A stretch of 64,000 nt of DNA from Candidatus Pyrohabitans jungbluthii (GCA_002010065.2 MTMD02000002.1:512001-576000); one strand, 5' to 3'; numbered from the stretch's first letter, positions 42,964 to 58,760 are shown. Translations and numbers: made by a program. Notes: generated from the letters alone by a model not told the origin.

Positions 42964-45900
42964 CTATCCAAAAATTTTTACAAATCGCCGGTTAATGTAC
43001 AATAAGATTACAGCCAGTAAAAGGATGAAGTTTGGTCCACACAGATATTTCTTATTACCAGCTTCTAAATCCTCATGGGCTATATTTTCTTTTTTCATAA
43101 TAATTCTTCCTTTTCCTTTTTGTCGTGTTTTATCCACCATTTCCGCAACCGCGAATTCTGATTCATTGAATGTGGTTTCTTTAAAAGCTTTTTCTAGGTA
43201 TTTTGAGACGAATACATTTAATGGCTTTCTTTCCACATCAAACCAGCTTTTTACAACCAGTACAAGCTCATAACTCTTATTTGCAGTAGCGCTGGTGGGT
43301 ATTGTTAGGGTGATGAGGTGTTCGCTTATTCCTGGGAGGATATACCCCCTGAAGGATGGGCTGCTCCACCCATGGGGCAGATTTTCGAGATACACTTCTA
43401 CGCCAGGTTCAGCATAGTTGCTGCTCAATTTTACCCTGATGGGCACTGAATCTCCTGGGTAGATAGTCTTCGTGGGCAGAGCTACTTCGAGAATAGTAAT
43501 TCTGTGAGACATGCCATCTCCGTCTGAAACTTCATAGGAACTGCCTGTGTTACTCTGCTTGCCCATCACACCCCAAAGGGAGAGCCCACTAACCCTTGCC
43601 CAGACATAATGTGAGGATGTATCAACTCCAGAGTCAAAGAGAGTAACATTACCCAGAGGCGCTGGGCACGCGAGAACTTCGCAATCGGCCCTTATCCAGC
43701 CTTCCTTGGTGAACCTTGCAACTCTCAGGGATTCCTCTTTTATATCCTGAGGTATATCACTCTGGTTGTAGTATATTTTTAGGATGATGTACTCCATGTC
43801 AGAAAGCCAGGTTGAGTTATCTTCAGAAAAGTTGAGGAAGATGGGCAGGGTTAGATTTTCTTCTACGCTTTCTGGTAAGGAGGTGGAAATGTTTACGGTT
43901 ATATTACCACCAGTCGTTGTGTTGCCTGCTTTGAAAACCACCTCATAGCTGCCCAGCAGAGTGTTCACCACACCAGTGCTGTAGTTCTCACCCCCAGCGA
44001 GGTGAGGAATCGTATGGTGTTTTATGAGGGTTGTGATCACTGTAAGATTTCTCACACCTGTGGAAATAACATTCTGAGCAAGGTCGTTCACTACCAACTC
44101 CCAGGTGTGGTTTCCATCAGCAAGCTGCACTTTTTTCACGACCTGGCTACCATTGGTGAAGGTGCCAAAGTACTGCTGGGCGCCACCGTCTATGATCAGC
44201 CTGTATGCCAGAGTTTCATCCACGTCATCGCCTGCTTCAAACTTAAAGGATACCTCTGCTCTGGTGGAGATGTAATTGTTTACCGGTTCAACCCCTTGCA
44301 GGTATGGCGCCTGAGAGTCCACCCTAACCTCTATGGCTTCGCTTTCATTGCTGTTGCCAGCTTTGTCATACACTTCCACAGGGAGATAATATACTCCAGA
44401 CGTTATATTCCCCACAACAACTGAGTCGTTGATGTAAAAGCCGTTGTTCTCGCTGAGGAGCACTATACCCGCTCCGATTGTGGAGGCATTTACCACCACT
44501 CTGTCTACCTTTTCATCGAAGGCGGTGATGTTAAGTGTTATGACATCCCCGGGCTTTGCGACGCTCTTTCCACTTGGATATATGGTAGGGTTCACCGTAA
44601 CGCTGGGCGGGGTGTTGTCCACGATAATTGTAAAGCTCTGAGTACTGTTCTCATTTCCTACGCGGTCTTTGGCAGAAACATTAAAGGTGTAGGAACCCTC
44701 CGGGTATTCGATGGAAAACGAAGCCCCAAAAGCCCCCGGGCTGACCTCCACCATTGTGCTAATGGGGCTTCCATTTTCATTGAGTATTTTTATGGAACTG
44801 GTGTTAACACCTGAGAGAAGGTCAGCAATGGAAGCGTTTACCCATAGTGAAGCGCCTGTGGTGAGATACTCGCTGCTAATGCTGATGTTCTCTACTCGTG
44901 GAGGTGTCACATCCAGTGCGGCAAAGCTGTGTTTTATGCTCTCTGCGTTACCTGCCCTATCCACAGAATAGTATTCTATTGTGTGGTTTCCTTCAGTATC
45001 GATAAAAATCTGGTTCCCCTCCTGCCATGAGGAGTTGTCTATCCTGTAATATGTATAATTGCAGCCCGATAGGTTATCGGTGCAGCTCAGATTTACCGTA
45101 AACTCTGACCTCTGCCATTCTGAGGGTGCATCGTCGCTGGTTGAGGGAGCGCTAAGGTCTACGGTGAAGTTCCAGGATTCTGAGCTCTTTGAGTTTCCTG
45201 CGGAATCTGTACAGTTTGCATACCAGGTATAGACACCTTCAGAAAGCTCTATGTAAGTCTGATTTGAAGAGTTGCCGGGCAGGTTAGAGAAGTTAAGCCT
45301 CAGGTTTTTCTCCCCGTTTATGTAAACATCGCAGTAGGAAAAGTTGCTCAGATTCTCCTCTATGCTCAATCTGAAGAGTATGGAGCTTATATTGAAGATT
45401 TCCTCGCTCCTGGGAGTCTCTCTGTGCAGCGTGGGTGGTGTGTTGTCCACCACAATTGTGAGCTGCTGGCTACTATTTACATTCCCGGCCACATCTCTTG
45501 CTGAGAAGTTGTAGGTGTGGAGCCCTTCGAGATAATCCACTGTAATCTCTGCCATAAAGGAACTTTGGCTTATGTTGTGCATCTGTGCCAAGACTGTGCC
45601 GTTTTCATAGAGGATGAAAACTGAGCTGTTATCCACGCCAGAAGCTGCATCGTATACCTCGACAGTGACAGTGATAGTATCGCCCGTTCTTAAGTATGTT
45701 CTGCTTGCAATGGGATTCTCAAACTTAGGGGCCTGGTTATCCAGCCTGTCCGTTAGAGGGAGATAATCTATGTTTGTTCCGCCTGAGATGTTGTAGGGTT
45801 GTTCTCCTATCCCGTCCCCATCTGTATCCCAGCCTTCGTAGCCAGAGTAGAAGTTGCCTCCTGTAGAGGAGTTCCAGTAGTTGGTGCCGCTGTCGTAGAC

Positions 45901-48402
45901 GCTGCCGTATATAAAGTTACTGTAGATGAGGTTATTAAAACACGCCAGCACTTTTAATCCATAATCCTGGTTTCCTGTGATGTTGTTTGAGCTAATGGTA
46001 TTGCCGTGGCTTTTCTCCAGTGTTATGCCAAGGTAATTTTGCTCAACCTTTATATCCTGTATGCTCGAGCCGTTGGTGTTATACAGGTAGATTCCAGAGG
46101 CACCGCTTGCGTTTGCTCCCCTTATGGTGAACCCTGAGATATTTACAGCAGAGGTGTTGCTAATTAGCAGGGCATGCGCTGAGGGATCAGCGGCTACGAT
46201 AAATGTTGAAGTGTTCCCTCCGCCGATAAGGTTTATGCTCTTGTTCACGAATACGTTTTCAGTATAGGTGCCAGGGGCTACATACACCGTCTCTGCTGGT
46301 GTGGCATAATCTATGCCCGCCTGAATTGTAGGTACTTCCTCGGGCACTCTAATAACTGAGGCGTTTACCGTGAAGCTCACCGCTGAAGCATTTAGATTGC
46401 CCCAGCTGTCGTTGGCATACACAGTTAAGTTATGGAGACCATTGCTCAGGAAAGAGAGGTTAAGTAGCAGTGTGTTGCCAGCAAAGGGGGTGCTGTTATC
46501 TCCGTCGTCCACCGAGTACCATATAAAGGTGGTGCTCTCATCGGAGATACTAACGTTGAGTAGTGGTGTGTGGTCCCCCTGTACTGAGCCATTCGCTGGG
46601 GAATGTATTTGAATCTCTGGCGGAGCTATATCCACAGGATTTACCCTTACGGTGAAGTTCTCAAAGCTTGAGGTGTAGTTCTCGTTTCCTTCAAAGGTGG
46701 CATTGAAGTAAAAGACTCCGCTGGTGTTCATTTGTATGATAACCTCAAGGGGTGATGAGCCTGAAACCAGGACTTTGTCAACGCCATCGGAGTAGTTGGT
46801 AGTAACGGTGACATTTCCTGAGTCCGGCACCACCAAGACGGCTGTAAAGTTCAGGGTATCAAACTGGTTCACAACCGCATCGCTACGGGTACCATTTATG
46901 TAGAGGTGAACCGAGGAGTCAGCCTTTAAAACCTCAAGCGCTTGGGAAACACTTCCGCTGGTGTAGTTCTGTCCGCCTGAGGTGTTGAATACGTAAATGT
47001 AAACCCCCGCAGCTAAGGTTGAGATATCAGGGTTCGCCACTGGCGTGCCATTCCTGTATAAGGTGTATGTAACGTCCTCATCGCCTAAGTTGGTTTCCAT
47101 GCCGGTTATGTTCGTCTCGCTCCCGTAGGTAACGCTCCACCCTGGCGAAGCGGTTAGGTTGAGGGTAGGCGAGGCTTTGGAAACAGTGTAATAAAAGATG
47201 TCGGTGGCGTTGACCAGACCTTCGGTGTTGTTGGCATACATTCGCCACTGATAAACCCCTGCGGCAAGGGAGGGATAGGTGTAGGAGTAGGTTGACCCGG
47301 AGTAGCTGCTCACAGTGTAGTTGACCAAGCTTCCTGTGAAGTTGTGCTCTATTAACACGGTGTCAATTGCAGAATCCGGCTCGCTCCATGTTACATTGAA
47401 CTGGTAGGTTTGGGAAAAAGAGTAGCTAACAGGCGCTGGAGGCGAAGCTGAGGGGTTGCTCCAGAGGGGAGGAGTGGTGTCTGCAGGTGCTGCTATCTCA
47501 ATCGTCCTGGTCTCACTTACGTTGAGATTCCCTGCACTGTCATTAGCCCACACGCGATAGGTGTAATTCCCATTCGCCAGGTTGGTCTTGTTTATATACC
47601 AGTTCGTCCCGCTCCCGCTCATGCTCTCGTTGGTGCCGTTCCACTCTAACCAGGCTGTTCCAGGTTCGCTCAGAGTGACGTTTATGAAAGTGTATCTGCG
47701 GTCTGTTATTGTAGCTCCATCAGGGTCAGTTGGTGGGACGAAGGTTATAGTGGGGGGTGTATTGTCGGGCGGTTGCCACGGCCAGACCACTAGAGGGTAG
47801 GGGTCCTCGTTGTTGGAATCTATGATGTAGGAACTGTCGCAGATGTTGTCCCCGTCCGAGTCAGTGCAGTCAGTGTTCTTCTCCCACTTATTGCCCACAT
47901 TGTAGCCGTCGATGGTGGAGTACCAGGTGTTTGTAACTAAAAAAGTTAGAGAAATAGTTTCGTGATAATCTTCTTGGGTATTGTTGAGGTAGTTGTTGTA
48001 GTATGTAGCACCATTCCCGGTATTTTCAATACCATAGTAATTGGAGGATATATTATTTCCTGTTATCACAGCGCTGGACCCTACTTGAATTCCTCCCTCC
48101 CAGTCGGTTATGACGCAGTTTCTTACCGTAACATTGACCAAGTCGGTGGGTATAGAAATTCCTATACTATTAGAATTATCAGTCCCATCTATTCTGTAAC
48201 CCTGACAGTCAAGCACAACGTCACTTGCGGAGATAGTTATGCAGGTGGAAGCGTAAGAGTCGATTATGTCACCTATTAGATAGTAAACACCTGAAGTGTC
48301 AATGTTAACCCCACATGAACTAATCGTCGCAGCACTACCCTCTCCAACAAGGGCAACAAAAGCTACCACCAAGCACAGGAGGAGTTGTCTTATTTTTTCC
48401 AT
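42964..48402 (-). CDS. Large cell-surface protein (NosD/CASH beta-helix and Ig-like repeats, CGP-CTERM)
   Basis: Signal peptide; two parallel beta-helix regions with DxDGDxI motifs; many D-x-AGN Ig repeats; LCGPNFILLLAVILLYINRR. Confidence 0.85.
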   Translation of the reverse strand: MEKIRQLLLCLVVAFVALVGEGSAATISSCGVNIDTSGVYYLIGDIIDSYASTCITISASDVVLDCQGYRIDGTDNSNSIGISIPTDLVNVTVRNCVITDWEGGIQVGSSAVITGNNISSNYYGIENTGNGATYYNNYLNNTQEDYHETISLTFLVTNTWYSTIDGYNVGNKWEKNTDCTDSDGDNICDSSYIIDSNNEDPYPLVVWPWQPPDNTPPTITFVPPTDPDGATITDRRYTFINVTLSEPGTAWLEWNGTNESMSGSGTNWYINKTNLANGNYTYRVWANDSAGNLNVSETRTIEIAAPADTTPPLWSNPSASPPAPVSYSFSQTYQFNVTWSEPDSAIDTVLIEHNFTGSLVNYTVSSYSGSTYSYTYPSLAAGVYQWRMYANNTEGLVNATDIFYYTVSKASPTLNLTASPGWSVTYGSETNITGMETNLGDEDVTYTLYRNGTPVANPDISTLAAGVYIYVFNTSGGQNYTSGSVSQALEVLKADSSVHLYINGTRSDAVVNQFDTLNFTAVLVVPDSGNVTVTTNYSDGVDKVLVSGSSPLEVIIQMNTSGVFYFNATFEGNENYTSSFENFTVRVNPVDIAPPEIQIHSPANGSVQGDHTPLLNVSISDESTTFIWYSVDDGDNSTPFAGNTLLLNLSFLSNGLHNLTVYANDSWGNLNASAVSFTVNASVIRVPEEVPTIQAGIDYATPAETVYVAPGTYTENVFVNKSINLIGGGNTSTFIVAADPSAHALLISNTSAVNISGFTIRGANASGASGIYLYNTNGSSIQDIKVEQNYLGITLEKSHGNTISSNNITGNQDYGLKVLACFNNLIYSNFIYGSVYDSGTNYWNSSTGGNFYSGYEGWDTDGDGIGEQPYNISGGTNIDYLPLTDRLDNQAPKFENPIASRTYLRTGDTITVTVEVYDAASGVDNSSVFILYENGTVLAQMHNISQSSFMAEITVDYLEGLHTYNFSARDVAGNVNSSQQLTIVVDNTPPTLHRETPRSEEIFNISSILFRLSIEENLSNFSYCDVYINGEKNLRLNFSNLPGNSSNQTYIELSEGVYTWYANCTDSAGNSKSSESWNFTVDLSAPSTSDDAPSEWQRSEFTVNLSCTDNLSGCNYTYYRIDNSSWQEGNQIFIDTEGNHTIEYYSVDRAGNAESIKHSFAALDVTPPRVENISISSEYLTTGASLWVNASIADLLSGVNTSSIKILNENGSPISTMVEVSPGAFGASFSIEYPEGSYTFNVSAKDRVGNENSTQSFTIIVDNTPPSVTVNPTIYPSGKSVAKPGDVITLNITAFDEKVDRVVVNASTIGAGIVLLSENNGFYINDSVVVGNITSGVYYLPVEVYDKAGNSNESEAIEVRVDSQAPYLQGVEPVNNYISTRAEVSFKFEAGDDVDETLAYRLIIDGGAQQYFGTFTNGSQVVKKVQLADGNHTWELVVNDLAQNVISTGVRNLTVITTLIKHHTIPHLAGGENYSTGVVNTLLGSYEVVFKAGNTTTGGNITVNISTSLPESVEENLTLPIFLNFSEDNSTWLSDMEYIILKIYYNQSDIPQDIKEESLRVARFTKEGWIRADCEVLACPAPLGNVTLFDSGVDTSSHYVWARVSGLSLWGVMGKQSNTGSSYEVSDGDGMSHRITILEVALPTKTIYPGDSVPIRVKLSSNYAEPGVEVYLENLPHGWSSPSFRGYILPGISEHLITLTIPTSATANKSYELVLVVKSWFDVERKPLNVFVSKYLEKAFKETTFNESEFAVAEMVDKTRQKGKGRIIMKKENIAHEDLEAGNKKYLCGPNFILLLAVILLYINRRFVKIFG

Positions 48403-50978
48403 GGCACCCAAGCCTTAAACAGAGCTAATACTACTATAGAGATTAAAATAACCAGGTTAGGCCCGCAGATGCCCTTCTTCTCTGGTGATTCTCCTTCTTC
48501 AACGATTTCCTCTTTGACAACCTCCTCTTTTTTCTCAGGTGGTTGAGAATAATCTTTACCGGAAGAGGCGGCTTTCTTCTTTGCCTCTTTCACCTGCTTT
48601 TCGCTGAACATCATAATTCCAAACTCTTCAAATGGAACAATGCTTCGGGTTTCCTGTACACTGTAGCCAGAGTTAGGGCTGCCTGAGATTGCGAAGAAAC
48701 CAAACCTATCGGTTTTCACAATAAAGTAAACATATTCGTAATCCTCTGAATAGGGCATGGTTTCAAGCTCTATCCAGACATTATCTTCTTTTATGTAACC
48801 CTTGATAGTATTAACGCTTACATCATTATTTTCCAGCCATGACTTTGCTATTCTGAATTTTATCTCTGCACTTGCAACATATGCATCAGGTTTATCAAAG
48901 TGTATTTTATAGTACCCATATACCTTTCCAGAAGGTTCCTCAAAAATGAAAGCTGGTTTTTCTTTGTGGGTATCCACACAGATCTTCGTATAGTACATAT
49001 CCTGGGCTCCAATAATGCCTATTGAAGCCACATCCGGCACTGCTTCGGGATCGAAAATCGCAGTGCCAGTGCTCCCAGCAAGTATCTTGGGAATTTCCAT
49101 ACAGTTCTCCGCAAGCCCGCCACCTCCACCGCCGCCCGCCGCTGGTGGAGGCGTCTCGCCCGGAGGTAGAGAAATCTCAGTAACGTTAATTGTCACCTCA
49201 TCGCTCGCCACGTTCCCTGCTGTATCGCTGGCTTCCAGTTTGTAGCTCCTCAGCCCCACACTGGAGGTATCAACAGACCATTCTATTGTGCTGCCGGATG
49301 CATAGACCCCACTAACTAAGAGGGTTTCGTTTAGATATATTCTGAAGTCTTTCGGGTGCTCCTCGGTAATTGTCCAAGTGATTGTTGTGGCGGTTCCCTG
49401 TTCAACTTCTGTTCCCGGACTAACGCTTCTGGTTATCTCAGGAGCCTCCAGATCTATCTCTATTGTTCTGCTCTCGCTGCTCCCCCAGTTTCCTGCGAGG
49501 TCTCTGCCATAAACCCTGTAGGTGTGTGTGCCGTGGGTAATCCCAGACTTTGTCCCAGACCAGCTATCCCCAGAGCCGCTCATCGAGATATTTTCTACTC
49601 CATCCCACTCCAGCAACGCCTCGCTCAAATCTTCGGTGGCGGTTATGGCAACTGTAATACTGGTGTCAGAAGTTACTGCTCTGTCCTGAGGCGTGGGTGA
49701 AACAAAGCTTATACTTGGTGGAGAGGTGTCAGGAAGCTCAACAGTAAAACTCACAGAAGCCTCGGCGATGTTGTTCGCCAAGTCGACGGCTATAATTTTA
49801 ATAGTGTGGCTACCCTCTGAGGCGTTGATGGTAATGGGCGGGCTGAAGGGCAGGTAGGCACCCCCATCTAGGGAGTAGAACCACCTTGCCACACCCTCGT
49901 CGGCGCTTACGTCGAGAGAAACCTCTGTGGAGGGGTATGTTATACTCTGGGGCGAGTTAATTGTTATCTGAGGCGGAGCTAGGTCCTTAAGTTCCTCTGG
50001 CGATGAAGTGGAATAGAGGGGTAGATTGTCACTTCCCAGAAGGCGGGTATAGGCATTGTAAGCAGAGTCTCCTATTCCATCGTTGTTGTTGTCGGTGCCG
50101 GTGTAGTCCCACCAGTAGTTGCCACCTATGTACTGCCCGCCGATGATATTTTCCCCCGAAGTTTTTGCGGTATTCCAGGTATTTGATGTATCTTCGCTTG
50201 CGGTGTTGTCCACGTATACGAAATTGTTGTAGAATAAGTTGTTTGAGGAGGAGGTTATAAAGATACCAACGGCATTCTCAACAGAAGAGTAGATAACATT
50301 GCTTTTAACAGTATTGGAGTTTGAAGAACTCTCCAAGACTATGCCGCCATTTGATACCCCTCCCTTTATATCGTTGCCTTCTATTGTATTGGAAGAGGAG
50401 GAGCGCAGGTATATTCCCATGGATGAGCTTCCTATAATGCCGTTGTTTTTTACAATGTTTCCATCGGAATTCTTTATTCTTAGGGCCTCTCTGCTGTAGA
50501 TAATCAAATTGTTTTCAACCGTCACGCTTGAAGCGTCTTCTAGCAGAATTGGATATGGGACTCCTATAAAAGCTGAATTTTTAATTGAAAATCCCTGCCC
50601 TGAAACTTTTATTCCAAATTTGGCTCCCTGGAAGACAAAATTTGACACCTCTGCGTTGTCTGCGGTTACTGTAATCAGCGTGTCAGTTGTCCTGGGTAAA
50701 AGTATGGGGTTGTTTTTACCTAGAAGCTTTAGACTCTTGGATAGAAAAATCCCAGCCTCTTCCTCATATATACCATCGCACACCACAATCGCGTCATTGT
50801 TCGCAGCCTCGGCAACCGCCTTTCTAATAGGATTTGGGTACTCGGAGGATGAGTAATAGCTATCTCCGTTTTCACAGGGGGCGGTCCCCTGGTAAACTAC
50901 CAGAGTTGCTGCATTTACTAAAGAAAAACTCAGCATTACAACAGCAAGCACCCACAGTTTCTCTGAATATCTATTCAT
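48390..50978 (-). CDS. Cell-surface protein (NosD beta-helix, Ig-like, PGF-pre-PGF-like, CGP-CTERM)
   Basis: GGNYWWDYTGTDNNNDGIGD; Gly linker; TDRFGFFAISG; GICGPNLVILISIVVLALFK. Confidence 0.85.
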   Translation of the reverse strand: MNRYSEKLWVLAVVMLSFSLVNAATLVVYQGTAPCENGDSYYSSSEYPNPIRKAVAEAANNDAIVVCDGIYEEEAGIFLSKSLKLLGKNNPILLPRTTDTLITVTADNAEVSNFVFQGAKFGIKVSGQGFSIKNSAFIGVPYPILLEDASSVTVENNLIIYSREALRIKNSDGNIVKNNGIIGSSSMGIYLRSSSSNTIEGNDIKGGVSNGGIVLESSSNSNTVKSNVIYSSVENAVGIFITSSSNNLFYNNFVYVDNTASEDTSNTWNTAKTSGENIIGGQYIGGNYWWDYTGTDNNNDGIGDSAYNAYTRLLGSDNLPLYSTSSPEELKDLAPPQITINSPQSITYPSTEVSLDVSADEGVARWFYSLDGGAYLPFSPPITINASEGSHTIKIIAVDLANNIAEASVSFTVELPDTSPPSISFVSPTPQDRAVTSDTSITVAITATEDLSEALLEWDGVENISMSGSGDSWSGTKSGITHGTHTYRVYGRDLAGNWGSSESRTIEIDLEAPEITRSVSPGTEVEQGTATTITWTITEEHPKDFRIYLNETLLVSGVYASGSTIEWSVDTSSVGLRSYKLEASDTAGNVASDEVTINVTEISLPPGETPPPAAGGGGGGGLAENCMEIPKILAGSTGTAIFDPEAVPDVASIGIIGAQDMYYTKICVDTHKEKPAFIFEEPSGKVYGYYKIHFDKPDAYVASAEIKFRIAKSWLENNDVSVNTIKGYIKEDNVWIELETMPYSEDYEYVYFIVKTDRFGFFAISGSPNSGYSVQETRSIVPFEEFGIMMFSEKQVKEAKKKAASSGKDYSQPPEKKEEVVKEEIVEEGESPEKKGICGPNLVILISIVVLALFKAWVPWKK

Positions 50979-51101
50979 TCCACAGTCCCTCAAAACACTG
51001 GCACAACCTTTGAGACAAACCTAACCAGTTAAAACTTTATCTTAAAAATTTTCATCATGATTAAAATAATTTTTTATTTTGGCAGTTTGTCAATTTAACA
51101 T

Positions 51102-51716
51102 TTATCCCTTCTTTCCCAGGTTTTTCAATCGGTTAAATAACTTTTTCATCAATCTTACTTCATTTTTACCATTTGCAGCATATATATTTTGGTTTTCAGG
51201 TATTACATAATTAAAAACTTTAGCAAGGCAGTCATCACAGAAATATAGTGACTTTTTGTCTATTTCATAAACGCTGCTGGAGAACTTCATGTTGCAGTTC
51301 TCATTTGAGCAATGGTTTAATCCGAAGGTATGTCCCAGCTCATGAAGAGCCTCCTTCAGCAACCTTTCAAGGAAAATCTTAGAGTGGTATCCCCGGTAGT
51401 AACCCTCCATTAAGCGAACAGGTGAAATCACGGCGCACCTCCCTCCCAGGGAAGCTAATCCAAAAATATAGTCAAAGTTCGCAACTGTTATGTCCCTACT
51501 AATAACACCAAGCACTTTATCAGCTTTTGTGAATCGTATAGTGAGGTCGTCTAAAAGGATATCTGCAAGCACCTGCCCCCTTTCATTAAACCAAAGAGGC
51601 AGTTCTTCCGGCGGAGAAATCAAAACATTTTCAAAATACTCCTTCAACCTTAATTTCAGGTACTCAAGCCAGAACTTATTCACGTCACCAATTGGAAGAA
51701 TTTCAAGAGCTACCAC
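51102..51716 (-). CDS. amzA: Archaemetzincin zinc metalloprotease
   Basis: YIFGLA, KEALHELGHTFGLNHC..NCNMKFS...IDKK...FCDDC. Confidence 0.9.
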   Translation of the reverse strand: MVALEILPIGDVNKFWLEYLKLRLKEYFENVLISPPEELPLWFNERGQVLADILLDDLTIRFTKADKVLGVISRDITVANFDYIFGLASLGGRCAVISPVRLMEGYYRGYHSKIFLERLLKEALHELGHTFGLNHCSNENCNMKFSSSVYEIDKKSLYFCDDCLAKVFNYVIPENQNIYAANGKNEVRLMKKLFNRLKNLGKKG

Positions 51717-51818
51717 GCCTAAACCCTGTGAGAGTAACCCGTTAAAATTTTTTTATACTAATATAAAATCAGCCCAATATATGCCCTATTGCGCCGGTCA
51801 GAGGGTAAAAATTCTAGG

Positions 51819-53117
51819 CTAAGAGAAGCCCCACTTCCTCAGCTCTGCCTTCGCTTTCCTCCTTTTACCTTCTAATCTCGCTATCTTCTCCTCTGTCAGG
51901 GCGATGTAATCCTTAAGCTGCTTCTCAAGTTTTTCCACTTTCGCCAGCTCTATGCGTGACCTCTCATCGCTGCTCTCTCCAGAGAGTGAGTCTTTAAAAT
52001 CGTAATACTTCTCCAGGCACTTCTCCATTATTCTGCGCAGACTGAAGCCGCCTAGGAGAATCATGGCATCAACGCTCTTACTCTCGGGAGAGGTGATCAA
52101 GCTGGTGTACCTCAGAATCCCTCCTCGCCCGCCTGCCAGGTGCTTCACAGCCCACTCGCGGGAGATGTCCTCTAAATCTTCCTGGGTAATCTCACCCTTC
52201 AGCACCTTCTCTTCAGGGGCGATAACTATTATGTAGGCCATTGTGGCGGTGCCCTTGTCCAGGGGTACCATTGCGTTGTTGGAAGCGCTCTCTAGGATTG
52301 CGTCCAGGCTGAGCACATCTGGGTCATTCCCAAGGCTCAGGCAAGGGGTGAAATGGATTGTCCCTAAATTGCTGGGGAGCTGATAGTAGTCTGCGATATC
52401 TATCGTTGCCTTCGAGGCATAGGTGCTGGGCGCAATCAGCATGTGTATCGCCCTTATAATCTCCTCGTTTATCCTCTGGTAGCGCTCCTCCTTCTGCCCC
52501 CGCCCTAGGTCGAGAATATGCTCCACCTGTGAGTTGTCCACAAGGATTACCAACGCAGCGTTCTGCTCGCCGTTATAGCGCAACAACCTTGAGAGGCCAC
52601 AGATGGCGTTGAAATGCCTCTGCGGAGCCTCAAAGTCATAGGGAAAGATGCCCAGCGCTATGAAGTTGTTTATCCTCTCCATGCCGAAGCCAGGGTTCCT
52701 CCTAACTCTGTGGATGATGTAGGGTAGCGACCCGTTGCCTGTGCCTCCTCCCAGGGTAGCGATACCAAGGAGCACATCGCTGCTCCGAAGCCTTAAGCTT
52801 GCGATGTATCTTCGTATGTTCTCGTAATCCTCAATTGCTTCTCTTTCGCCAAGAACCCAGTTGTTACCCGCGCCGCTTGGAGCCCTGCCAAAAATGCAAA
52901 CCCGCTCGCGTTTTATCTTCTCGTACTTTTCCCTCAGCTCGGGGCTCTGCGCAAAGATGTGCTCCAGCGGCTTCTCGGGCTTAACGTCCGCCGGCGTTGT
53001 ATTGAGGAGAAGCACTCTATCGCCGATGCTCGGATTTTTATACTTCGCGTAGTAAAGAAAGGCTATGCGGTTTGCGCCCTGTCCGCTCGCTATTATACCC
53101 CATCTTGTAGCTTGCAT
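51819..53117 (-). CDS. Divergent tubulin/FtsZ-family GTPase B
   Basis: ASGQGANRI, LLNTT, GAGNN, TLGGGTGNG, ILVDN, T7-like IDIADY; C-terminal coiled coil. Confidence 0.88.
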   Translation of the reverse strand: MQATRWGIIASGQGANRIAFLYYAKYKNPSIGDRVLLLNTTPADVKPEKPLEHIFAQSPELREKYEKIKRERVCIFGRAPSGAGNNWVLGEREAIEDYENIRRYIASLRLRSSDVLLGIATLGGGTGNGSLPYIIHRVRRNPGFGMERINNFIALGIFPYDFEAPQRHFNAICGLSRLLRYNGEQNAALVILVDNSQVEHILDLGRGQKEERYQRINEEIIRAIHMLIAPSTYASKATIDIADYYQLPSNLGTIHFTPCLSLGNDPDVLSLDAILESASNNAMVPLDKGTATMAYIIVIAPEEKVLKGEITQEDLEDISREWAVKHLAGGRGGILRYTSLITSPESKSVDAMILLGGFSLRRIMEKCLEKYYDFKDSLSGESSDERSRIELAKVEKLEKQLKDYIALTEEKIARLEGKRRKAKAELRKWGFS

Positions 53118-53121
53118 GCTT

Positions 53122-54495
53122 TCAACCTTTGAGCTTTAATGTTTTCTTCTCAAATTTAACCTCTGGATGTGTTTCGCTATAGCGTTTGAGGAAATCCTCG
53201 GCATAGCGCACCTTGAGTTCCTCTGCACTCACCTCGCCATTCTCCCTGAGCTTCTGCTCTATAATCTTTTCTATCGCCGGGTAGTTTTTAGCTATCTTCA
53301 CAGTCTTATATCTGGTGTCAAATTCGCCAGATAGGGTCTTAAGCACATCAAGCGCTTCCTTTGAAAACTTGGAGAAATCCTTTCTGGGGTCAAGCTTTGA
53401 GACGTACCTCTCAACCCCCTTCCTTCTTACCCCAGCCACCTCCAGCTTTTTCAGCTCTTCTTCTAGGGCTACAATCTCCCTTGCGAGGGCTCTAGCAACC
53501 TCAAGCGTGAGCCTCTTTGCTTCTTCCCTGAGGGTGCTTAGTTCGCTGAGGTAGCCAGGGTCATCATAGCTCAGCACCTTCTCCCTAAGGCTTAAAACTG
53601 CGCGCTCCTCCTTTACAAAGTCCTCCTTGATAAACTTGAGAAGGCGCTCCAGGTAGCTAATTATCTCCTTCTTTTCCTGCAGGAAGGGCTTTGTAAGGTA
53701 GCTTGCAGCCTCGCTTCGCACCTTCTGAAGCTTGGGTATAACCTCTACGCTATGTCGGCGCTCCTTAACTATCTCAAGCTCCTTTCTCAGGTGAACAACC
53801 TCAGCAGAGATGCTTTCGGCTGTATCTAGGAGAAACTCCGCTTCGCTGATGCACTTCTGAATTATCTTCAGATATACCTCCTCGCTTCGTCTGCGCTTTT
53901 CAAGTAGCTCTCCCAGCGTAGCGGAGGGCATCTTCACTATTCGTCTCAGCTCTTCGTACTCCTCGCCCACAGAGAATCCGCTCTCAACCAAAGCTTTCGC
54001 GGCGCTGAGCAACTCTTCCATCCTCTTCGCTGCTGCTTCACCATAGCTCGCAGCAGCCAGCGACTCCAGGCTGCGAAGCTGCTGCTCAACTTTCCTGCTC
54101 TCCAGCTCAATCGCGGTGAGCGTCACCTTTTCAATTTTCTTCTCGTTTACCTCAAAGTCCTTCGTGAAGAATCCTTTTGATATAAGCTCCTTCCTTATCC
54201 TCTTCAAATCCCTCATAAAGGGCTCAATGTCGATAAACTCAGAGGCTTCTTTTATGTTATCTTCTATCTTATCCAGCGCACTCCTAATTTTGTTCAGAAT
54301 TTCAATTTTAAGAAGCATTACGGTCTTGTCGGTCTTGCTCTTCCACCAGGTGTAAATTAGGCTAGCAATGAGCACGGATACTATTACTCCAACCGCAAGG
54401 TAGGATACAAAGTTTATTCCAAATGTGAGGAGCAGGAACAAGCCTGCACCCAGCGTGGCAAGGACTACCAGGGCGGTTATCACATATTCGTTCAT
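53122..54495 (-). CDS. Membrane-anchored long coiled-coil protein
   Basis: Two N-terminal TM, then ~400 aa of E/K-rich heptad helix; possible small winged-helix-like end. Confidence 0.75.
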   Translation of the reverse strand: MNEYVITALVVLATLGAGLFLLLTFGINFVSYLAVGVIVSVLIASLIYTWWKSKTDKTVMLLKIEILNKIRSALDKIEDNIKEASEFIDIEPFMRDLKRIRKELISKGFFTKDFEVNEKKIEKVTLTAIELESRKVEQQLRSLESLAAASYGEAAAKRMEELLSAAKALVESGFSVGEEYEELRRIVKMPSATLGELLEKRRRSEEVYLKIIQKCISEAEFLLDTAESISAEVVHLRKELEIVKERRHSVEVIPKLQKVRSEAASYLTKPFLQEKKEIISYLERLLKFIKEDFVKEERAVLSLREKVLSYDDPGYLSELSTLREEAKRLTLEVARALAREIVALEEELKKLEVAGVRRKGVERYVSKLDPRKDFSKFSKEALDVLKTLSGEFDTRYKTVKIAKNYPAIEKIIEQKLRENGEVSAEELKVRYAEDFLKRYSETHPEVKFEKKTLKLKG

Positions 54496-54497
54496 TT

Positions 54498-55697
54498 TTA
54501 AGCCTCGCTCTCAAGGAAATCTTTCTCGTATTCCTCAAGTACGCGCAGGGAGATATCTTTGTACTGGCTTGCAAGCTGGCTCAACGTCTTCAGGCGAGAA
54601 ATCTGATTTGGGCGGTAGGTTAGCAACACAGTCGCCGTCGCTAGGTTGCGCTTTGTCAGGGCGACGCCGAAGTGGGTCTCTCCAAGGCGAGAGTGCTCCT
54701 CCATCACCTGCTTAGCCATGCTGGTGTTTATCCTGCCGCGCTTTGTCAGGTAAACAGGGGGGATGCGCAGCAGCACAAGGTTCTTCTCCGCGTGCTCTGG
54801 TCTAACGTCGGCGAGGGTGAGCTTCATGAAGCTCCTGTAGAGCAGGGAGATGACATCTATCTCCTTATACCCGCCGAAGGGGAAGATATAGTGCAGAAAG
54901 TTTCTCGTTCTCTCAGAAGCTCTGCCTAGGGCTGCGAAGCCAGGACGAGTGCGCTTTCCAAAGGAGAAGCTTGTCGCGGCTATCATGTCCTTGAGGTCAA
55001 TCACAGGAGCGTAGCCCTCGTACTGCGATGGGTCCACACGTTCTATCACAGTGCCTATGAGAATGTCCCGTATGCTCCTAGCAACGTACTCATTGTACCT
55101 CTGGAACAAGCTCTCGGCACTTTCTGCGTACGCAAGCTTCTGGTTGTCTACCAGAATCACAGAGTCCACGTGCTCTATGATCAGGTTTAAGCTTTCCACC
55201 GCATTTTTCGCTGTAAGACCGCCCTCATGCGTTGCTGGCAGCACAACTATGGCGATAACCGGAATTCTCATCTCCTTCAAAACGCTCGCAACCACAGGTC
55301 CAGCCCCACTCCCGGTGCCACCACCCAGAGCAAAGGCAACAAAAGCCACGGGCACGCCTATACCCGAGCCCTCCTCGCTCTCGATGCTTAACCTCTCCAC
55401 AATCGCCTCCTTCAGGTTGTCCCTGAAGCGCATGGCATCTTCCTCTGCCTTTGCGCGGTTCTTCCCGTAGCCCCCGCTCACAAAGTGCTCAAAGCCGTGG
55501 AGTGTGCCCGGGATGAACCCTCTATCCCTTGACATTCCAATCCAGTGCTCTCGCTTTATGTTTTTGAGTGTCTGCAGGTCTAGGGTAGCCGAGTTTATGG
55601 CTATGGGCACGGCTATTTTGAACATTATCTCATCATAAAAAGCAGCGTCTATTATTGCTCCGCCGCACTGTCCCACACCTATAAAAGCGTATGGCAT
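54498..55697 (-). CDS. Divergent tubulin/FtsZ-family GTPase A (CetZ-like)
   Basis: ATG at 55697 after GGTGA; FIGVGQCGG, AINSA..DL, GYGKN, ALGGGTGSG, ILVDNQ, IDLKDM. Confidence 0.9.
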   Translation of the reverse strand: MPYAFIGVGQCGGAIIDAAFYDEIMFKIAVPIAINSATLDLQTLKNIKREHWIGMSRDRGFIPGTLHGFEHFVSGGYGKNRAKAEEDAMRFRDNLKEAIVERLSIESEEGSGIGVPVAFVAFALGGGTGSGAGPVVASVLKEMRIPVIAIVVLPATHEGGLTAKNAVESLNLIIEHVDSVILVDNQKLAYAESAESLFQRYNEYVARSIRDILIGTVIERVDPSQYEGYAPVIDLKDMIAATSFSFGKRTRPGFAALGRASERTRNFLHYIFPFGGYKEIDVISLLYRSFMKLTLADVRPEHAEKNLVLLRIPPVYLTKRGRINTSMAKQVMEEHSRLGETHFGVALTKRNLATATVLLTYRPNQISRLKTLSQLASQYKDISLRVLEEYEKDFLESEA

Positions 55698-55777
55698 GAT
55701 TTCACCAGCTTGCTCTGAGGTAACCTCGCTGTTCGCTTTTATATTTATTTCAAAGGTCAAATATAAAATATTATTGC

Positions 55778-56728
55778 ATGGGCTCAAGGGTGCTTCTTCT
55801 CATTCTGTTCACGATTTCGTTGATTCCCAGTGTTCATTCTCTGGACTGTGGAGATGTCCTCGCGGAGCTTCGTGGCTTCACTTCGTCAGCCTTCGCTGCC
55901 TATCCAGAGCTTAGGCAGGTGAAGCAGGATACCTTGCTTCTGCTCTACTCCCAGCAACGCACAGCATGCGACATTCAGCTTTTGAACTTTGCCTCCTCTT
56001 CCATGGAGTATCTCAAAAGCATGGATGCCGCCTACCTTCTTGTAAGCAGCGCTGAGCTGGAGTCTCAGAGGGAGGGGGTGAAGAAGGCGATAGAGGCTGA
56101 GAGGTTTATCTCTGAGATGCGCTCAGATAGCACTGAGCTGGGAATCCTCGCTCAAGATGCGGTGCAAGAGGCTGAACAGGGGAGGGAGAACTTCCTACTT
56201 TCGCAGGCTCTGACCTTCGAGAGTAGGGCTGAGAAGGCTGAGAGCACAAGGGATAAGCTGGCAAACTTTGAGCTCGCCATAGCTTGCTACGAGGCGGCAG
56301 ACGCTCTTCAGGCGAATAGCTTGAAGGTCAGAAAGCAGAGCTTAGAGGAGAAGTACATAGCTGACATAGTGGCAGCGCAGGAGTACCTGAGCGAAGCAAT
56401 AGCTTTGCTCACGCGCGCAGAAAAGCTTGAGGTCGCCTTCCTCGGCTTTGTGGACGCGTACACCTTAGCAAGGGAAGCAAAGATGAGCCTTGTCAGGGCT
56501 AAAGAACTTTACCAGCTTCATCACGAGAAGGAGAAGCTGGCGGAGGTTGAGGAGGTCTCTATTAATGCTGAAGAAGTCTACTCCTCAACCAGAAAGAGGA
56601 TTCTGATGCTATTTGCCATTGTTTCTCTAACTCTCACCTCGCTTTCGGTGTACATCCACAGCATAATTCTAAGCTGGGAAAGGGATACCTATGACTGCTA
56701 TCTTGGTAACGAGCTTGTGGGGGCATAG
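55778..56728 (+). CDS. Secreted helical protein with C-terminal TM
   Basis: Signal peptide, TPR-like helices, TM, tail WERDTYDCYLGNELVGA. Confidence 0.7.
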   Translation: MGSRVLLLILFTISLIPSVHSLDCGDVLAELRGFTSSAFAAYPELRQVKQDTLLLLYSQQRTACDIQLLNFASSSMEYLKSMDAAYLLVSSAELESQREGVKKAIEAERFISEMRSDSTELGILAQDAVQEAEQGRENFLLSQALTFESRAEKAESTRDKLANFELAIACYEAADALQANSLKVRKQSLEEKYIADIVAAQEYLSEAIALLTRAEKLEVAFLGFVDAYTLAREAKMSLVRAKELYQLHHEKEKLAEVEEVSINAEEVYSSTRKRILMLFAIVSLTLTSLSVYIHSIILSWERDTYDCYLGNELVGA

Positions 56729-56729
56729 C

Positions 56730-58760
56730 ATGCGCTTCTTGAGTATTCTTCTTGTTACGCTCTTACTCTTCGCCTCACCTGTGAGCGCCCAGGTTACGGC
56801 AAGCTTTGACTATGATGAGGTGGACTTTTACTTCGACAAGCCCAAAAATGAGGTCTCCTATTTTGAGGAGAACTTAACCTTGGAGTTCTTCAATGCAGAC
56901 AATGAGAGCGCAGCGATACTCTCTGGTCTTGAGGCAACGCTCTCTGGCGAGGCGAAGGATAAGGGCATGAGTGTTGTCCTCGAGAAGAGCTATCTTCGGG
57001 TTGAACCCAACGATAAATCTTACCTCACCATTTCCTTCCGTGCACCCCCAAGCGTGCCTGAGGGCAGGTATGAAGCGAAGCTTGAGGTTAAGGGCAACTA
57101 CACTTACATTACCAAGCAGGGTGTCCACACCCTACTCCATGAATTCTACATCACAGTAAATGTTGACCACCCACCTGCGACGCTTGCGGCGAGCTGGGAC
57201 CTTGCGGAATGGGGAAAGCTCAGAGCAGGGCAGAGCTTTGAGCGCACCCTCACCGTGAGGGAGGTTTATGGGTACGCTGGGGCAAGCAACGTTACGCTCT
57301 ATCTCTCAAGAACAGGACCCGTGAACCTCACCTACACCTCGAGCTTAGGGGATATACCCGCAGGAGGGTCAAAGAGCATTAAGGTTAAGGTTCAGGTACC
57401 TGAGAGGTACCTTAGGCCGGGAGACTACAAAGTTGTTCCAAAGATTGTGAAAGATTACAAAACGCAGGTGTCAACGCTTGAGCAGGCTAACTATACCATC
57501 CCAAAGCCAGAGATGGCGATTTCCACCACTAAGTTAAATTTCGGCAGGCTCACCTTTGAGGTTGGCAAGGATACAGCGACAGCAAGCATAACTGTCAGCG
57601 AGGTTGGTGGCTACACTCCAATCGAGGGTTTGAGCATCTCTCTGGTTAAGGGGGAGGAGGGGTGGGTGGGCTACACCCAGGTTAACTACATTCCCCCAGG
57701 GAGGAATGCAACAGTAAACTTTACCCTTATCCTGCCCCCGGATGCAAGCCTCGGAAAAAAAAGCTGGATTTTTGAAATAACTACTGTGCATGCCGGGAGT
57801 GTGGAGATTCTTGGGGAGGCTATAGTGTATTTCCCAGGTTTGGATGAGGCGGAGCGTTCCCTCGCTGCCCTGCCCTCGCTGCCCTCTCATCCAGAGGTCA
57901 AAGAGGCGGTGCAGAACCTGCGGGAGATGATAGCAGCCTCTAGGGATGTAACCGAACTCAGGGAGATAGCAATGGTCATGTCGGTGTACAGCGGCGTTAG
58001 CTCTTTTGTGAATATCCTAGCAGGTGCTGAAGGTAAGCCCCTTGAGGAACGCGTTGAGAGCATTATACTTGCAAAGAGGAGTCTCAACAGAGCAAAGATA
58101 GGAAGCGAGAACCTGGAGGACAGGAACTTAAAGAAGTACGCTATACCCGCGGTTGAAGCCTTAGAGAACGTGTGGAAAAGGGAGGCAGGCTCAGCAGCAG
58201 AGGCTCTTGAGGCTGTGGTAAAGCAGAAGGAGGAAAGCGATTACCGTGGCGCAGCGCTGGACTACAAGAGGCTTAAGACGCTTTATTCGCTGCTCGGTGA
58301 AGCTGAGAGTGCGAAGGAGTACGCCTCAAAGCAGGAGGAGATGGAGCGTGCCTATTTCAACTCCCTATCTGAGGCGATGTCCCTCCTCAGGCTTGCGGAG
58401 GAAAATGTAAGCGCAGCTAGAAGGCTCACCTTCAATATAAAGGAAGCCTCCTTTGTTATCAACCCCTTCCATTACGAGGCGGTTATGGCTTACTACGATG
58501 ATGCTCTCTCCAGCGTTGAGAGGGCAAGGCTTCTTCTTGACAGGGCGGGCGAAGATGAGGAGGCGAAGCTGCTTCAGAGGAGGATGAAAGAGCTCAAAGA
58601 CAGGAAGCGCACCATTGAGAGAACCTTCAGGGTCTACCTTGCCTTCCTCACCCTCTTCTTCCTGTGGTTTGTGGCGAGGGTGACTCTGGGTCTGCTGCGC
58701 TGGATTCGTGACTCGGAGGCTCTTGCAGAGGGCGACGTGCTCCTTGGGGCCGAGGGTTAA
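56730..58760 (+). CDS. Secreted Ig-like and helical protein with C-terminal TM
   Basis: Signal peptide; three beta-sandwich repeats; helical region; tail WIRDSEALAEGDVLLGA. Confidence 0.72.
   Translation: MRFLSILLVTLLLFASPVSAQVTASFDYDEVDFYFDKPKNEVSYFEENLTLEFFNADNESAAILSGLEATLSGEAKDKGMSVVLEKSYLRVEPNDKSYLTISFRAPPSVPEGRYEAKLEVKGNYTYITKQGVHTLLHEFYITVNVDHPPATLAASWDLAEWGKLRAGQSFERTLTVREVYGYAGASNVTLYLSRTGPVNLTYTSSLGDIPAGGSKSIKVKVQVPERYLRPGDYKVVPKIVKDYKTQVSTLEQANYTIPKPEMAISTTKLNFGRLTFEVGKDTATASITVSEVGGYTPIEGLSISLVKGEEGWVGYTQVNYIPPGRNATVNFTLILPPDASLGKKSWIFEITTVHAGSVEILGEAIVYFPGLDEAERSLAALPSLPSHPEVKEAVQNLREMIAASRDVTELREIAMVMSVYSGVSSFVNILAGAEGKPLEERVESIILAKRSLNRAKIGSENLEDRNLKKYAIPAVEALENVWKREAGSAAEALEAVVKQKEESDYRGAALDYKRLKTLYSLLGEAESAKEYASKQEEMERAYFNSLSEAMSLLRLAEENVSAARRLTFNIKEASFVINPFHYEAVMAYYDDALSSVERARLLLDRAGEDEEAKLLQRRMKELKDRKRTIERTFRVYLAFLTLFFLWFVARVTLGLLRWIRDSEALAEGDVLLGAEG

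Follow-up and report, generated by a model that had tools for sequence, protein, structure and literature searches.

A 64,000-nucleotide stretch of the Candidatus Pyrohabitans jungbluthii genome (GCA_002010065.2, MTMD02000002.1:512001-576000), from a member of the Hydrothermarchaeota with a genome of 1.99 Mb, encodes two divergent tubulin-like GTPases, A and B, on either side of a gene for a helical membrane protein, CC. We refer to the whole stretch that was analyzed as the window and count positions from its first letter. A, CC and B lie on the minus strand at positions 51819-55697. A preliminary description, made from the sequence alone, had taken them for an operon of two tubulin/FtsZ-family GTPases around a membrane-anchored coiled-coil protein, and had proposed an undescribed, membrane-tethered and possibly heteropolymeric cytoskeletal system. 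The genes do nearly abut, with 2 nt between the stop of A and the start of CC and 4 nt between the stop of CC and the start of B, and at both gaps a purine-rich box stands ahead of the downstream start. A system of three genes proved too narrow a view: the conserved module contains at least six, namely A, CC, B, up316, up689 and p847 (Table 1).

Full-length B orthologues (51-89% identity) were found in 23 of 40 relatives, the other 17 giving only FtsZ-level matches (~1e-8), and A orthologues (E 1e-40 or better) in 22 of the 40. A and B are co-inherited. The single discordant genome (L038) has A cut by a contig end, and neither gene was found in 17 relatives. Gene order was examined in 20 of the 23 B loci. 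All 20 have the order A-CC-B that the preliminary description had noted in one genome, with A cut by a contig end in two of them, a recurrence far beyond chance. Compared with the window proteins, A is 67-95% identical across these loci, B 51-89% and CC 30-79%; the conservation of A, far above that of its two partners, fits a filament former. The genes up316 (14 of 20 loci) and up689 (13 of 20) are transcribed divergently from A wherever the contig reaches, and every locus that misses them has a contig end within ~400 bp of A. In the Hydrothermarchaeota loci with enough flank, p847 adjoins up689 in convergent orientation.

The open reading frame of A (54498..55787) would give 429 aa from a TTG codon. 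An ATG at 55697, 4 nt downstream of a GGTGA box, gives a 399-aa protein beginning MPYAF, and an MPY start is also found in 16 of 18 full-length Hydrothermarchaeota A orthologues. The 80-bp spacer between A and up316 has AT-rich, TATA-like boxes and is probably the shared promoter region of these two genes. A five-T run past B forms a terminator-like operon end, one of a set of terminator-like sites whose total count does not exceed that in shuffled sequence. The real start of up689 may be the ATG at 56730.

Table 1 Features of the module and its flanking signals, in window coordinates.
Feature	Coordinates	Strand	Description
A, tubulin-like GTPase, 399 aa	54498..55697	-	PF00091 85.3 bits (cut-off 33); own CetZ-like clade
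CC, two-transmembrane all-helical protein, 457 aa	53122..54495	-	predicted membrane hairpin, helical bundles, small C-terminal domain
B, tubulin-like GTPase of 'noncanonical' family, 432 aa	51819..53117	-	PF00091 32.5 bits as protein, 34.3 bits in six-frame genome search (cut-off 33); own clade
Terminator-like five-T run, begins 8 nt past B stop	51807..51818	-	sequence read
AT-rich divergent spacer A/up316, 80 bp, TATA-like boxes	55698..55777		sequence read
up316, 316 aa	55778..56728	+	signal/anchor segment, helical body, C-terminal transmembrane segment, 18-aa tail
up689, 689 aa	56691..58760	+	signal peptide, Ig-like/CARDB-type beta-sandwich, helical region, C-terminal transmembrane segment, tail
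p847, 847 aa	58757..61300	-	signal peptide, Ig-like and PQQ-type beta-propeller domains, transmembrane segment, ~295 cytoplasmic residues

Other neighbors were considered as parts of the module and rejected. The gene directly downstream of B (51102-51716, minus strand) encodes an archaemetzincin-family metalloprotease (NF033823, 145.3 bits, cut-off 145) and accompanies the cluster only within the genus. The same is true of two giant surface-protein genes (42964-50993), which lie on the minus strand at 42964-48411 (1815 aa) and 48390-50993 (867 aa) and overlap by 22 nt. Both surface proteins contain NosD-type parallel beta-helix repeats and OmpL47-type barrel domains and finish with a C-G-P-N segment followed by a hydrophobic stretch; the 867-aa protein also has a PGF-pre-PGF domain. 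The genes past 61300 are apparently unrelated housekeeping genes, as read from their translations without a family search. PADLOC assigned no defence family to any of the six module proteins. PHROGs gave a single weak match, to B (phrog_17961, E 1.7e-4, unknown function), and a defence or phage origin was rejected.

Two GTPase families outside the FtsZ and CetZ clades

A and B are true members of the tubulin/FtsZ superfamily. A scores far over the Pfam cut-off for PF00091; B falls just short of it as a protein and passes it in the six-frame genome search (Table 1), and PF00091 is carried by all full-length B relatives among the matches listed. Both proteins have the motifs that were first pointed out from the sequence. 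The T4 signature reads GGGTGSG at A 125-131 and GGGTGNG at B 123-129, and its glycine-rich stretch is invariant in both families. The T7 motif reads IDLKD at A 233-237 and IDIAD at B 239-243, with invariant aspartates in each (A D234/D237 in 30 alignment rows, B D240/D243 in 76). The strong divergence between the two is also borne out, at 25% identity over 208 aa by BLASTP (E 1e-6), and comparison of the family profiles relates them with a probability of 98.5% (E 2.1e-15, 24% identity over 271 columns).

The best solved relative of A is CetZ1 of Haloferax volcanii (4b46, E 1.6e-19), and the alignment runs from end to end (residues 2-389), from which a tubulin-type fold is predicted for A. A further resembles CetZ in that its T1 loop is of GQ-x-GG type, the FtsZ_C domain is missing and the NxDFAD loop is without its N. 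For B, the best sequence match is Methanocaldococcus jannaschii FtsZ, at only 2.9e-8, and a weak match to TubZ (4xcq, E 8.1e-5) was also obtained. Its T3 loop is of GAGNNW type, which we take to resemble that of tubulin. An AlphaFold2 (AF2) model of B from a 76-row alignment has a mean predicted local distance difference test score (pLDDT) of 91.1 and a predicted template modeling score (pTM) of 0.92. Foldseek placed OdinTubulin first among the matches to this model (template modeling score, TM-score, 0.74 by query), then eukaryotic tubulins (~0.70), with CetZ1 (0.66 by query, 0.85 by target) and M. jannaschii FtsZ (0.60) close behind, all with a probability of 1.00; BtubB superposes with a TM-score of 0.69-0.72. 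Neither A nor B has a Pfam match to Tubulin_C, and both remain below the cut-off of 295.2 bits for the FtsZ equivalog TIGR00065 (A 79.6 bits, B 38 bits). Membership in FtsZl/Tubulin_2 was considered and rejected, the sole match being one of 21.7 bits (cut-off 27) to the A homologue of Halobacterium salinarum.

The C-termini of both proteins are conserved. The B model ends in two helices (391-417 and 422-428), and the last residues are [WF]GF in 19 of 20 orthologues and WGL in one. A ends in L-x-V-L-E-E-Y-E-K-D-F (...VLEEYEKDF), a tail conserved within the order and replaced elsewhere by an acidic helix of the type ...YE.E. Such conserved peptides are reminiscent of the C-terminal peptide of FtsZ.

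PF00091 genes number seven in the host genome: besides A and B there are two on contig 8 and three in tandem at C2:456030-459544. We calculated phylogenetic trees from these seven, all PF00091 genes of five other B carriers (a Halorussus, a Methanoperedens, a Micrarchaeote, an Altiarchaeum and a Methanogaster) and the cluster genes of a second haloarchaeon. After a quick tree of 40 rows, a careful IQ-TREE run was made on 39 rows and 368 columns, without Altiarch_L146 (branch length 3.79) and L131, a duplicate of the L124 region. In the careful tree A and B each form a clade of their own (support 100/99 and 100/100), outside both the FtsZ1/FtsZ2 clade (100/100) and the canonical CetZ clade (96/91). 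The branching order among the four clades is weakly supported (50/35 and 58/77), and the CetZ label rests on the matches of two rows to 4b46, one a CetZ1 orthologue from Halorussus (4.1e-212) and one from the host (9.8e-110). The host has its own FtsZ1/FtsZ2 pair and three genes in the CetZ clade. Thus, A represents a CetZ-like family of its own and B a second, more divergent family; with the three-gene order conserved and both proteins outside the established clades, the outcome by which the preliminary description would have been refuted did not come about. The A and B trees are congruent: in both, Hydrothermarchaeota fall together with Micrarchaeota and Altiarchaeota, as Halobacteria do with Methanoperedens.

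The trees also contained several unusual paralogues. The host trio (L003, L004 and L006), ~53 kb upstream of the window, falls entirely in the CetZ clade; L003 is a close CetZ1 relative, and L004 and L006 sit on very long branches (1.8-1.9). On contig 60 of the Altiarchaeum genome (G044, L124/L131), an 832-aa frame holds two tandem FtsZ-type GTPase domains, seen as two PF00091 matches ~1.3 kb apart, and is followed by a third FtsZ gene. Methanogaster contig 149 (G045, L133) encodes a tubulin-family protein of 368 aa whose T1 loop is of GQCGN type; its branch is long and attaches to none of the four clades. Three extra FtsZ-like paralogues of Methanoperedens (G042; L130, L135 and L140) form a tight clade (100/100) inside the FtsZ group.

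Relatives of these proteins have names already, so that the word 'undescribed' in the preliminary description does not fully hold. Over 85% of its length, B shares 38% identity with a Natronomonas moolapensis protein that NCBI calls 'FtsZ family protein, noncanonical', and it groups with the haloarchaeal cluster proteins at 100/100. The available text of Brown and Duggin 2023 (PMC9856176) speaks of some archaeal proteins as 'non-canonical TSF' (tubulin superfamily) with a patchy distribution. Santana-Molina et al. 2023 (PMC9871819), in its accessible parts, describes 'Halo.Tub' in Halobacterota, present in Halobacteria, Methanosarcinia and Altiarchaeota, with coiled-coil neighbors, quasi-tandem copies and N-terminal blocks like those of eukaryotic tubulin, along with CetZ-like groups in Altiarchaeota and Methanosarcina, and draws no function for Halo.Tub. 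The quasi-tandem copies and coiled-coil neighbors fit the haloarchaeal form of the cluster, and judging from these descriptions B is probably Halo.Tub. As far as these portions go, both surveys are confined to phylogeny and name no membrane partner, envelope proteins, tail motif or function. A differs from CetZ in its separate clade and in its distance from CetZ1 (1.6e-19, against 9.8e-110 for a CetZ of the same host). The CetZ neighborhoods reported in the available part of PMC9856176 are pili regulons and biosynthesis genes, and include no hairpin membrane partner with a second tubulin. Our literature search found no bench study of the proteins of this module.

The membrane partner CC and the envelope proteins

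CC is predicted to enter the membrane with an N-terminal hairpin of two helices and to continue in the cytoplasm with helical bundles and a small C-terminal domain, in line with the membrane-anchored coiled-coil protein that was first proposed. Its hydrophobic segments (5-23 and 29-47) are followed by a positive patch, WWKSK, and the AF2 model from a 25-row alignment (pLDDT 89.6, pTM 0.67) is otherwise all-helical up to the C-terminal helix/strand domain (~400-457). This domain holds five of the seven invariant residues (Y405, E409, I412, F435 and Y439). CC belongs to no Pfam or NCBIfam family, and Foldseek found no match to it in the PDB (best E 0.3). A wide VIA-align search returned generic three-helix bundles (best Z 10.4), which were rejected as relatives. 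In the Atlas no usable feature match was obtained, the nearest models being hypothetical archaeal proteins (TM-score <=0.48). A search of 1.84 billion proteins with a CC profile gathered only 118 representative proteins, whose lengths fall into two classes, ~460 and ~700 residues.

We modeled CC residues 290-457, as partner, in complex with A and B in three runs and with three controls. The interface score ipSAE was 0.48 (0.48, 0.50 and 0.47 in the runs), for the contact of CC as partner and not for that between A and B; the best of the three controls, one of which had B replaced, gave 0.00. The partner had a pLDDT of at least 69, and at least 94% of contacts were the same between runs. In calibration, 58 of 80 solved complexes scored at or above the mark, as did 2 of 110 mismatched pairs, and scores of 0.60 or below came from only 7 of those 80 solved complexes and from both passing mismatches. 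The verdict is a weak one. The model suggests that CC contacts B, and hints that the C-terminal part of CC may bind the filament proteins, B being needed for the score. The membrane tether of the preliminary description is kept as a membrane protein, and its tethering as a tentative assignment.

In each of the three remaining module proteins, a signal-like segment at the N-terminus is followed further on by a single transmembrane segment. The hydrophobic segments of up316 are at 5-23 and 275-298. In up689, NPCBM_assoc (28.4 bits) and choice-of-anchor D (24.3 bits) matches precede a transmembrane segment at 646-668. p847 has matches to PQQ_2 (41.8 bits), Big_7 (25.1 bits) and CarboxypepD_reg (25.4 bits); its transmembrane segment (532-550) leads into KRSKPAKP and 295 further residues, including the CarboxypepD_reg beta-sandwich and a helical end. 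Against the Atlas, this cytoplasmic part matched only generic CarboxypepD_reg/PEGA clusters with scores <0.9.

The tails that follow the last transmembrane segments of up316 and up689 share a pattern, read by eye as aromatic-x-x-D-x6-G-[DNE]-hydrophobic, in 14 of 14 up316 tails and all 12 complete up689 tails. It takes the form W-x-x-D-x6-G-N-E-L within the 18-aa tail of up316 and [WFY]-x-x-D-x6-G-[DE]-hydrophobic in up689. The two proteins are not significantly similar by BLASTP (E 0.70), yet the top alignment between them consists of the two tails. Judged from its sequence, the shared tail is a candidate docking-type motif.

Related clusters in other archaeal lineages

In a scan of one genome per species, 102 loci encode a B relative, and the best 80 of the 102 were analyzed. 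They come from Hydrothermarchaeota, Micrarchaeota, Altiarchaeales, ANME-2/Methanosarcinales (Methanoperedens, Methanogaster) and Halobacteria. Outside the Hydrothermarchaeota, neighbors of B were sought by tblastn with the window proteins. All five micrarchaeal loci have an A homologue on the opposite strand at a distance of 1.5-4 kb, and in four of the five CC is directly upstream of B. Methanoperedens has A, CC and B in that order on one strand. In 21 of the 23 Halobacteria-type loci, A is found 3.4-5 kb upstream of B; the remaining two are without enough flank. Methanoperedens and Halobacteria loci also contain p847-like and up689-like genes, and a homologue of the C-terminal part of p847 is found downstream of B in Micrarchaeota, Methanoperedens and Halobacteria.

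The gene run in Halorussus opens with a third tubulin paralogue (PF00091 48.2 bits) and goes on with an unknown gene, A, another unknown gene, a long CC, B and three more genes. These three encode a 935-aa CarboxypepD_reg protein that matches the C-terminus of p847 (E 1.2e-5), a 378-aa protein and an 897-aa CARDB/Ig protein that matches up689. In Halobacterium salinarum R1 the cluster is on plasmid pHS2 as an annotated run of 11 same-strand genes, two named 'cell division protein FtsZ' and the rest 'hypothetical', with a PQQ beta-propeller gene opposite. The tail motif recurs in three of four haloarchaeal counterparts, the Halorussus 378-aa and 897-aa proteins and the H. salinarum 900-aa protein, the last with E for D. 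In Micrarchaeota, A carries at its end a fused beta-sandwich of CarboxypepD_reg/PEGA type (PEGA, 21.2 bits), and CC does so in Methanoperedens (PF13620, 33 bits). Since p847 has the same type of domain in its cytoplasmic part, this domain shuffling ties A, CC and p847 together.

The third tubulin-family gene that begins the haloarchaeal clusters (L100:123-1739, L150:2363-3985) encodes ~540 aa, with PF00091 at 48-52 bits and an N-terminal extension of ~95 residues. The window has no gene corresponding to it.

A candidate envelope-coupled cytoskeleton

We read the module, at somewhat better than even odds (a probability of about 0.55), as a membrane-tethered two-tubulin cytoskeleton coupled to envelope proteins. 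A and B would bind GTP and assemble, together or side by side, into filaments at the inner face of the membrane; both retain the T7 aspartates needed for polymerization-dependent GTP hydrolysis, so that both most likely form filaments. CC would be the dedicated tether, with its hairpin in the membrane and its helical bundles and C-terminal domain reaching the filament. The proteins up316, up689 and p847 would each cross the membrane once and expose large Ig-like or beta-propeller domains outside, while the cytoplasmic tails of up316 and up689 and the ~295 inner residues of p847 would dock on the filament/CC layer. Through these contacts the filament could position, pattern or move surface proteins and shape the cell or its envelope. 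Parallels are found in CetZ1, which acts in cell shape, and in treadmilling FtsZ, which guides envelope enzymes through membrane adaptors. A CetZ-like role at the membrane, in shape or envelope organization, is likely.

Two further systems invite comparison. FtsZ with its tethers (EzrA, SepF, ZipA and, in haloarchaea, CdpC) pairs a filament with a dedicated partner that fixes it to the membrane, as proposed for the module, and CC shares with EzrA the general layout of an N-terminal anchor and helical bundles. The module differs in having two different tubulins and three surface proteins, and in a putative tether with no sequence or specific fold match in Pfam, NCBIfam or Foldseek searches. CdpC, according to the available part of a 2026 preprint, is an FtsZ1 anchor of another build, with an amphipathic helix and zinc fingers. 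BtubA and BtubB, encoded with the helical partner BtubC (5o09), are likewise two divergent tubulin paralogues, and the B model superposes on BtubB. However, the Btub proteins are soluble, close to eukaryotic tubulin, and have no membrane hairpin partner or envelope proteins; their heterodimer has been demonstrated, whereas the A and B pair is known here from genes and models.

Several observations weigh against the proposed cytoskeleton. The module as a whole comes to us as genes and models, and the complex score leaves the A-B contact aside. The tight A-CC-B operon is a feature of Hydrothermarchaeota. The module is dispensable, being not found in 17 of 40 relatives. With the queries used, ANME-2-type and Altiarchaeum loci have no A or CC within ~8 kb of B, apart from a distant A-like gene at one of them (L079), and their A-clade genes are on other contigs. 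Among 151 sampled Halobacteria only 14 have B, and five haloarchaeal plasmids carry it. The fourth haloarchaeal tail, of the 329-aa protein of H. salinarum, has W-x-x-D and is missing the motif glycine. Basic residues precede the C-terminal transmembrane segments of up316 and up689 and make their sidedness ambiguous. By VIA-align, CC resembles EzrA (4uxv) with Z 8.8 and an rmsd of 17.9 for 279 aligned residues, no more than helical proteins reach by chance and too low to be informative.

Some of these points count in favor of other explanations. The one that fares best, though we consider it rather unlikely, is that A and B are not co-polymers, and that one of them, most likely A, is the filament, with B as a nucleator, cap, regulator or separate second filament within the same module. 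An identity of only 24-25% and the far stronger conservation of A suit this division of labor, the dependence of the CC fragment score on B fits an adaptor role, and the third tubulin paralogue of haloarchaea and the dispersed genes of ANME-2 and Altiarchaeum point the same way. It is opposed by the retention in A and B of all nucleotide-binding loops and both T7 aspartates, and by their strict co-inheritance within the order and congruent trees.

An accessory apparatus for cell division or envelope constriction, working beside FtsZ1 and FtsZ2, has only a slim chance of being correct. EzrA is a partner of FtsZ, and the combination of tubulin-superfamily GTPases with a membrane tether whose anchor and helical-bundle repeats recall EzrA-type proteins would suit such a task. 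But the host already has a full FtsZ1/FtsZ2 pair, the cluster contains no known division genes, and the failure to find it in many relatives, or B in most sampled Halobacteria, is at odds with this task. We think it just as improbable that the filaments serve the assembly or extrusion of a surface structure (an appendage, vesicle or adhesion patch) from the three envelope proteins rather than cell shape. The dedicated surface proteins with Ig-like and propeller domains, the patchy, accessory and partly plasmid-borne distribution and the adjacent large surface-protein genes of the window are what this idea would predict; the conserved set, however, has no secretion ATPase, pilin or sortase-type gene, and the giant neighbors do not follow the module beyond the genus. 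A TubZ-like DNA or plasmid segregation system is very improbable: some haloarchaeal copies are on plasmids, B weakly matches TubZ and the small helix/strand end of CC has winged-helix domains among its nearest Atlas models (TM-score <=0.36), but the Hydrothermarchaeota copies are on large chromosomal contigs (one of 1.9 Mb, for example), the partner is a membrane protein, the conserved neighbors are surface proteins, and no DNA-binding family was detected in any cluster protein, repeat arrays not having been searched for.

A bolder form of the proposed cytoskeleton, which we regard as unlikely, has A and B as an obligate heteropolymer outside the Btub and Asgard lineages, tethered by CC and, by its GTP-driven dynamics, carrying or patterning surface proteins hooked on by their tails. 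Such a heteropolymer, if real, would act as a trans-envelope conveyor powered by tubulin and serve archaea in adhesion, surface patterning or gliding, and B, with its tubulin-like T3 loop and its best structural matches to Odin and eukaryotic tubulins, would mark an intermediate branch in the origins of tubulin.

How archaeal tubulin-like filaments are fixed to the membrane, and what they act upon, is little known. The module offers a full candidate parts list: two co-inherited tubulins, a putative membrane tether without a known family and three envelope proteins. Halobacterium salinarum R1 is cultured and genetically tractable, and the copy on its plasmid pHS2 makes the proposal directly testable in that species. 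The cluster spans lineages from Hydrothermarchaeota to Halobacteria and may show how archaeal filaments connect to the envelope.

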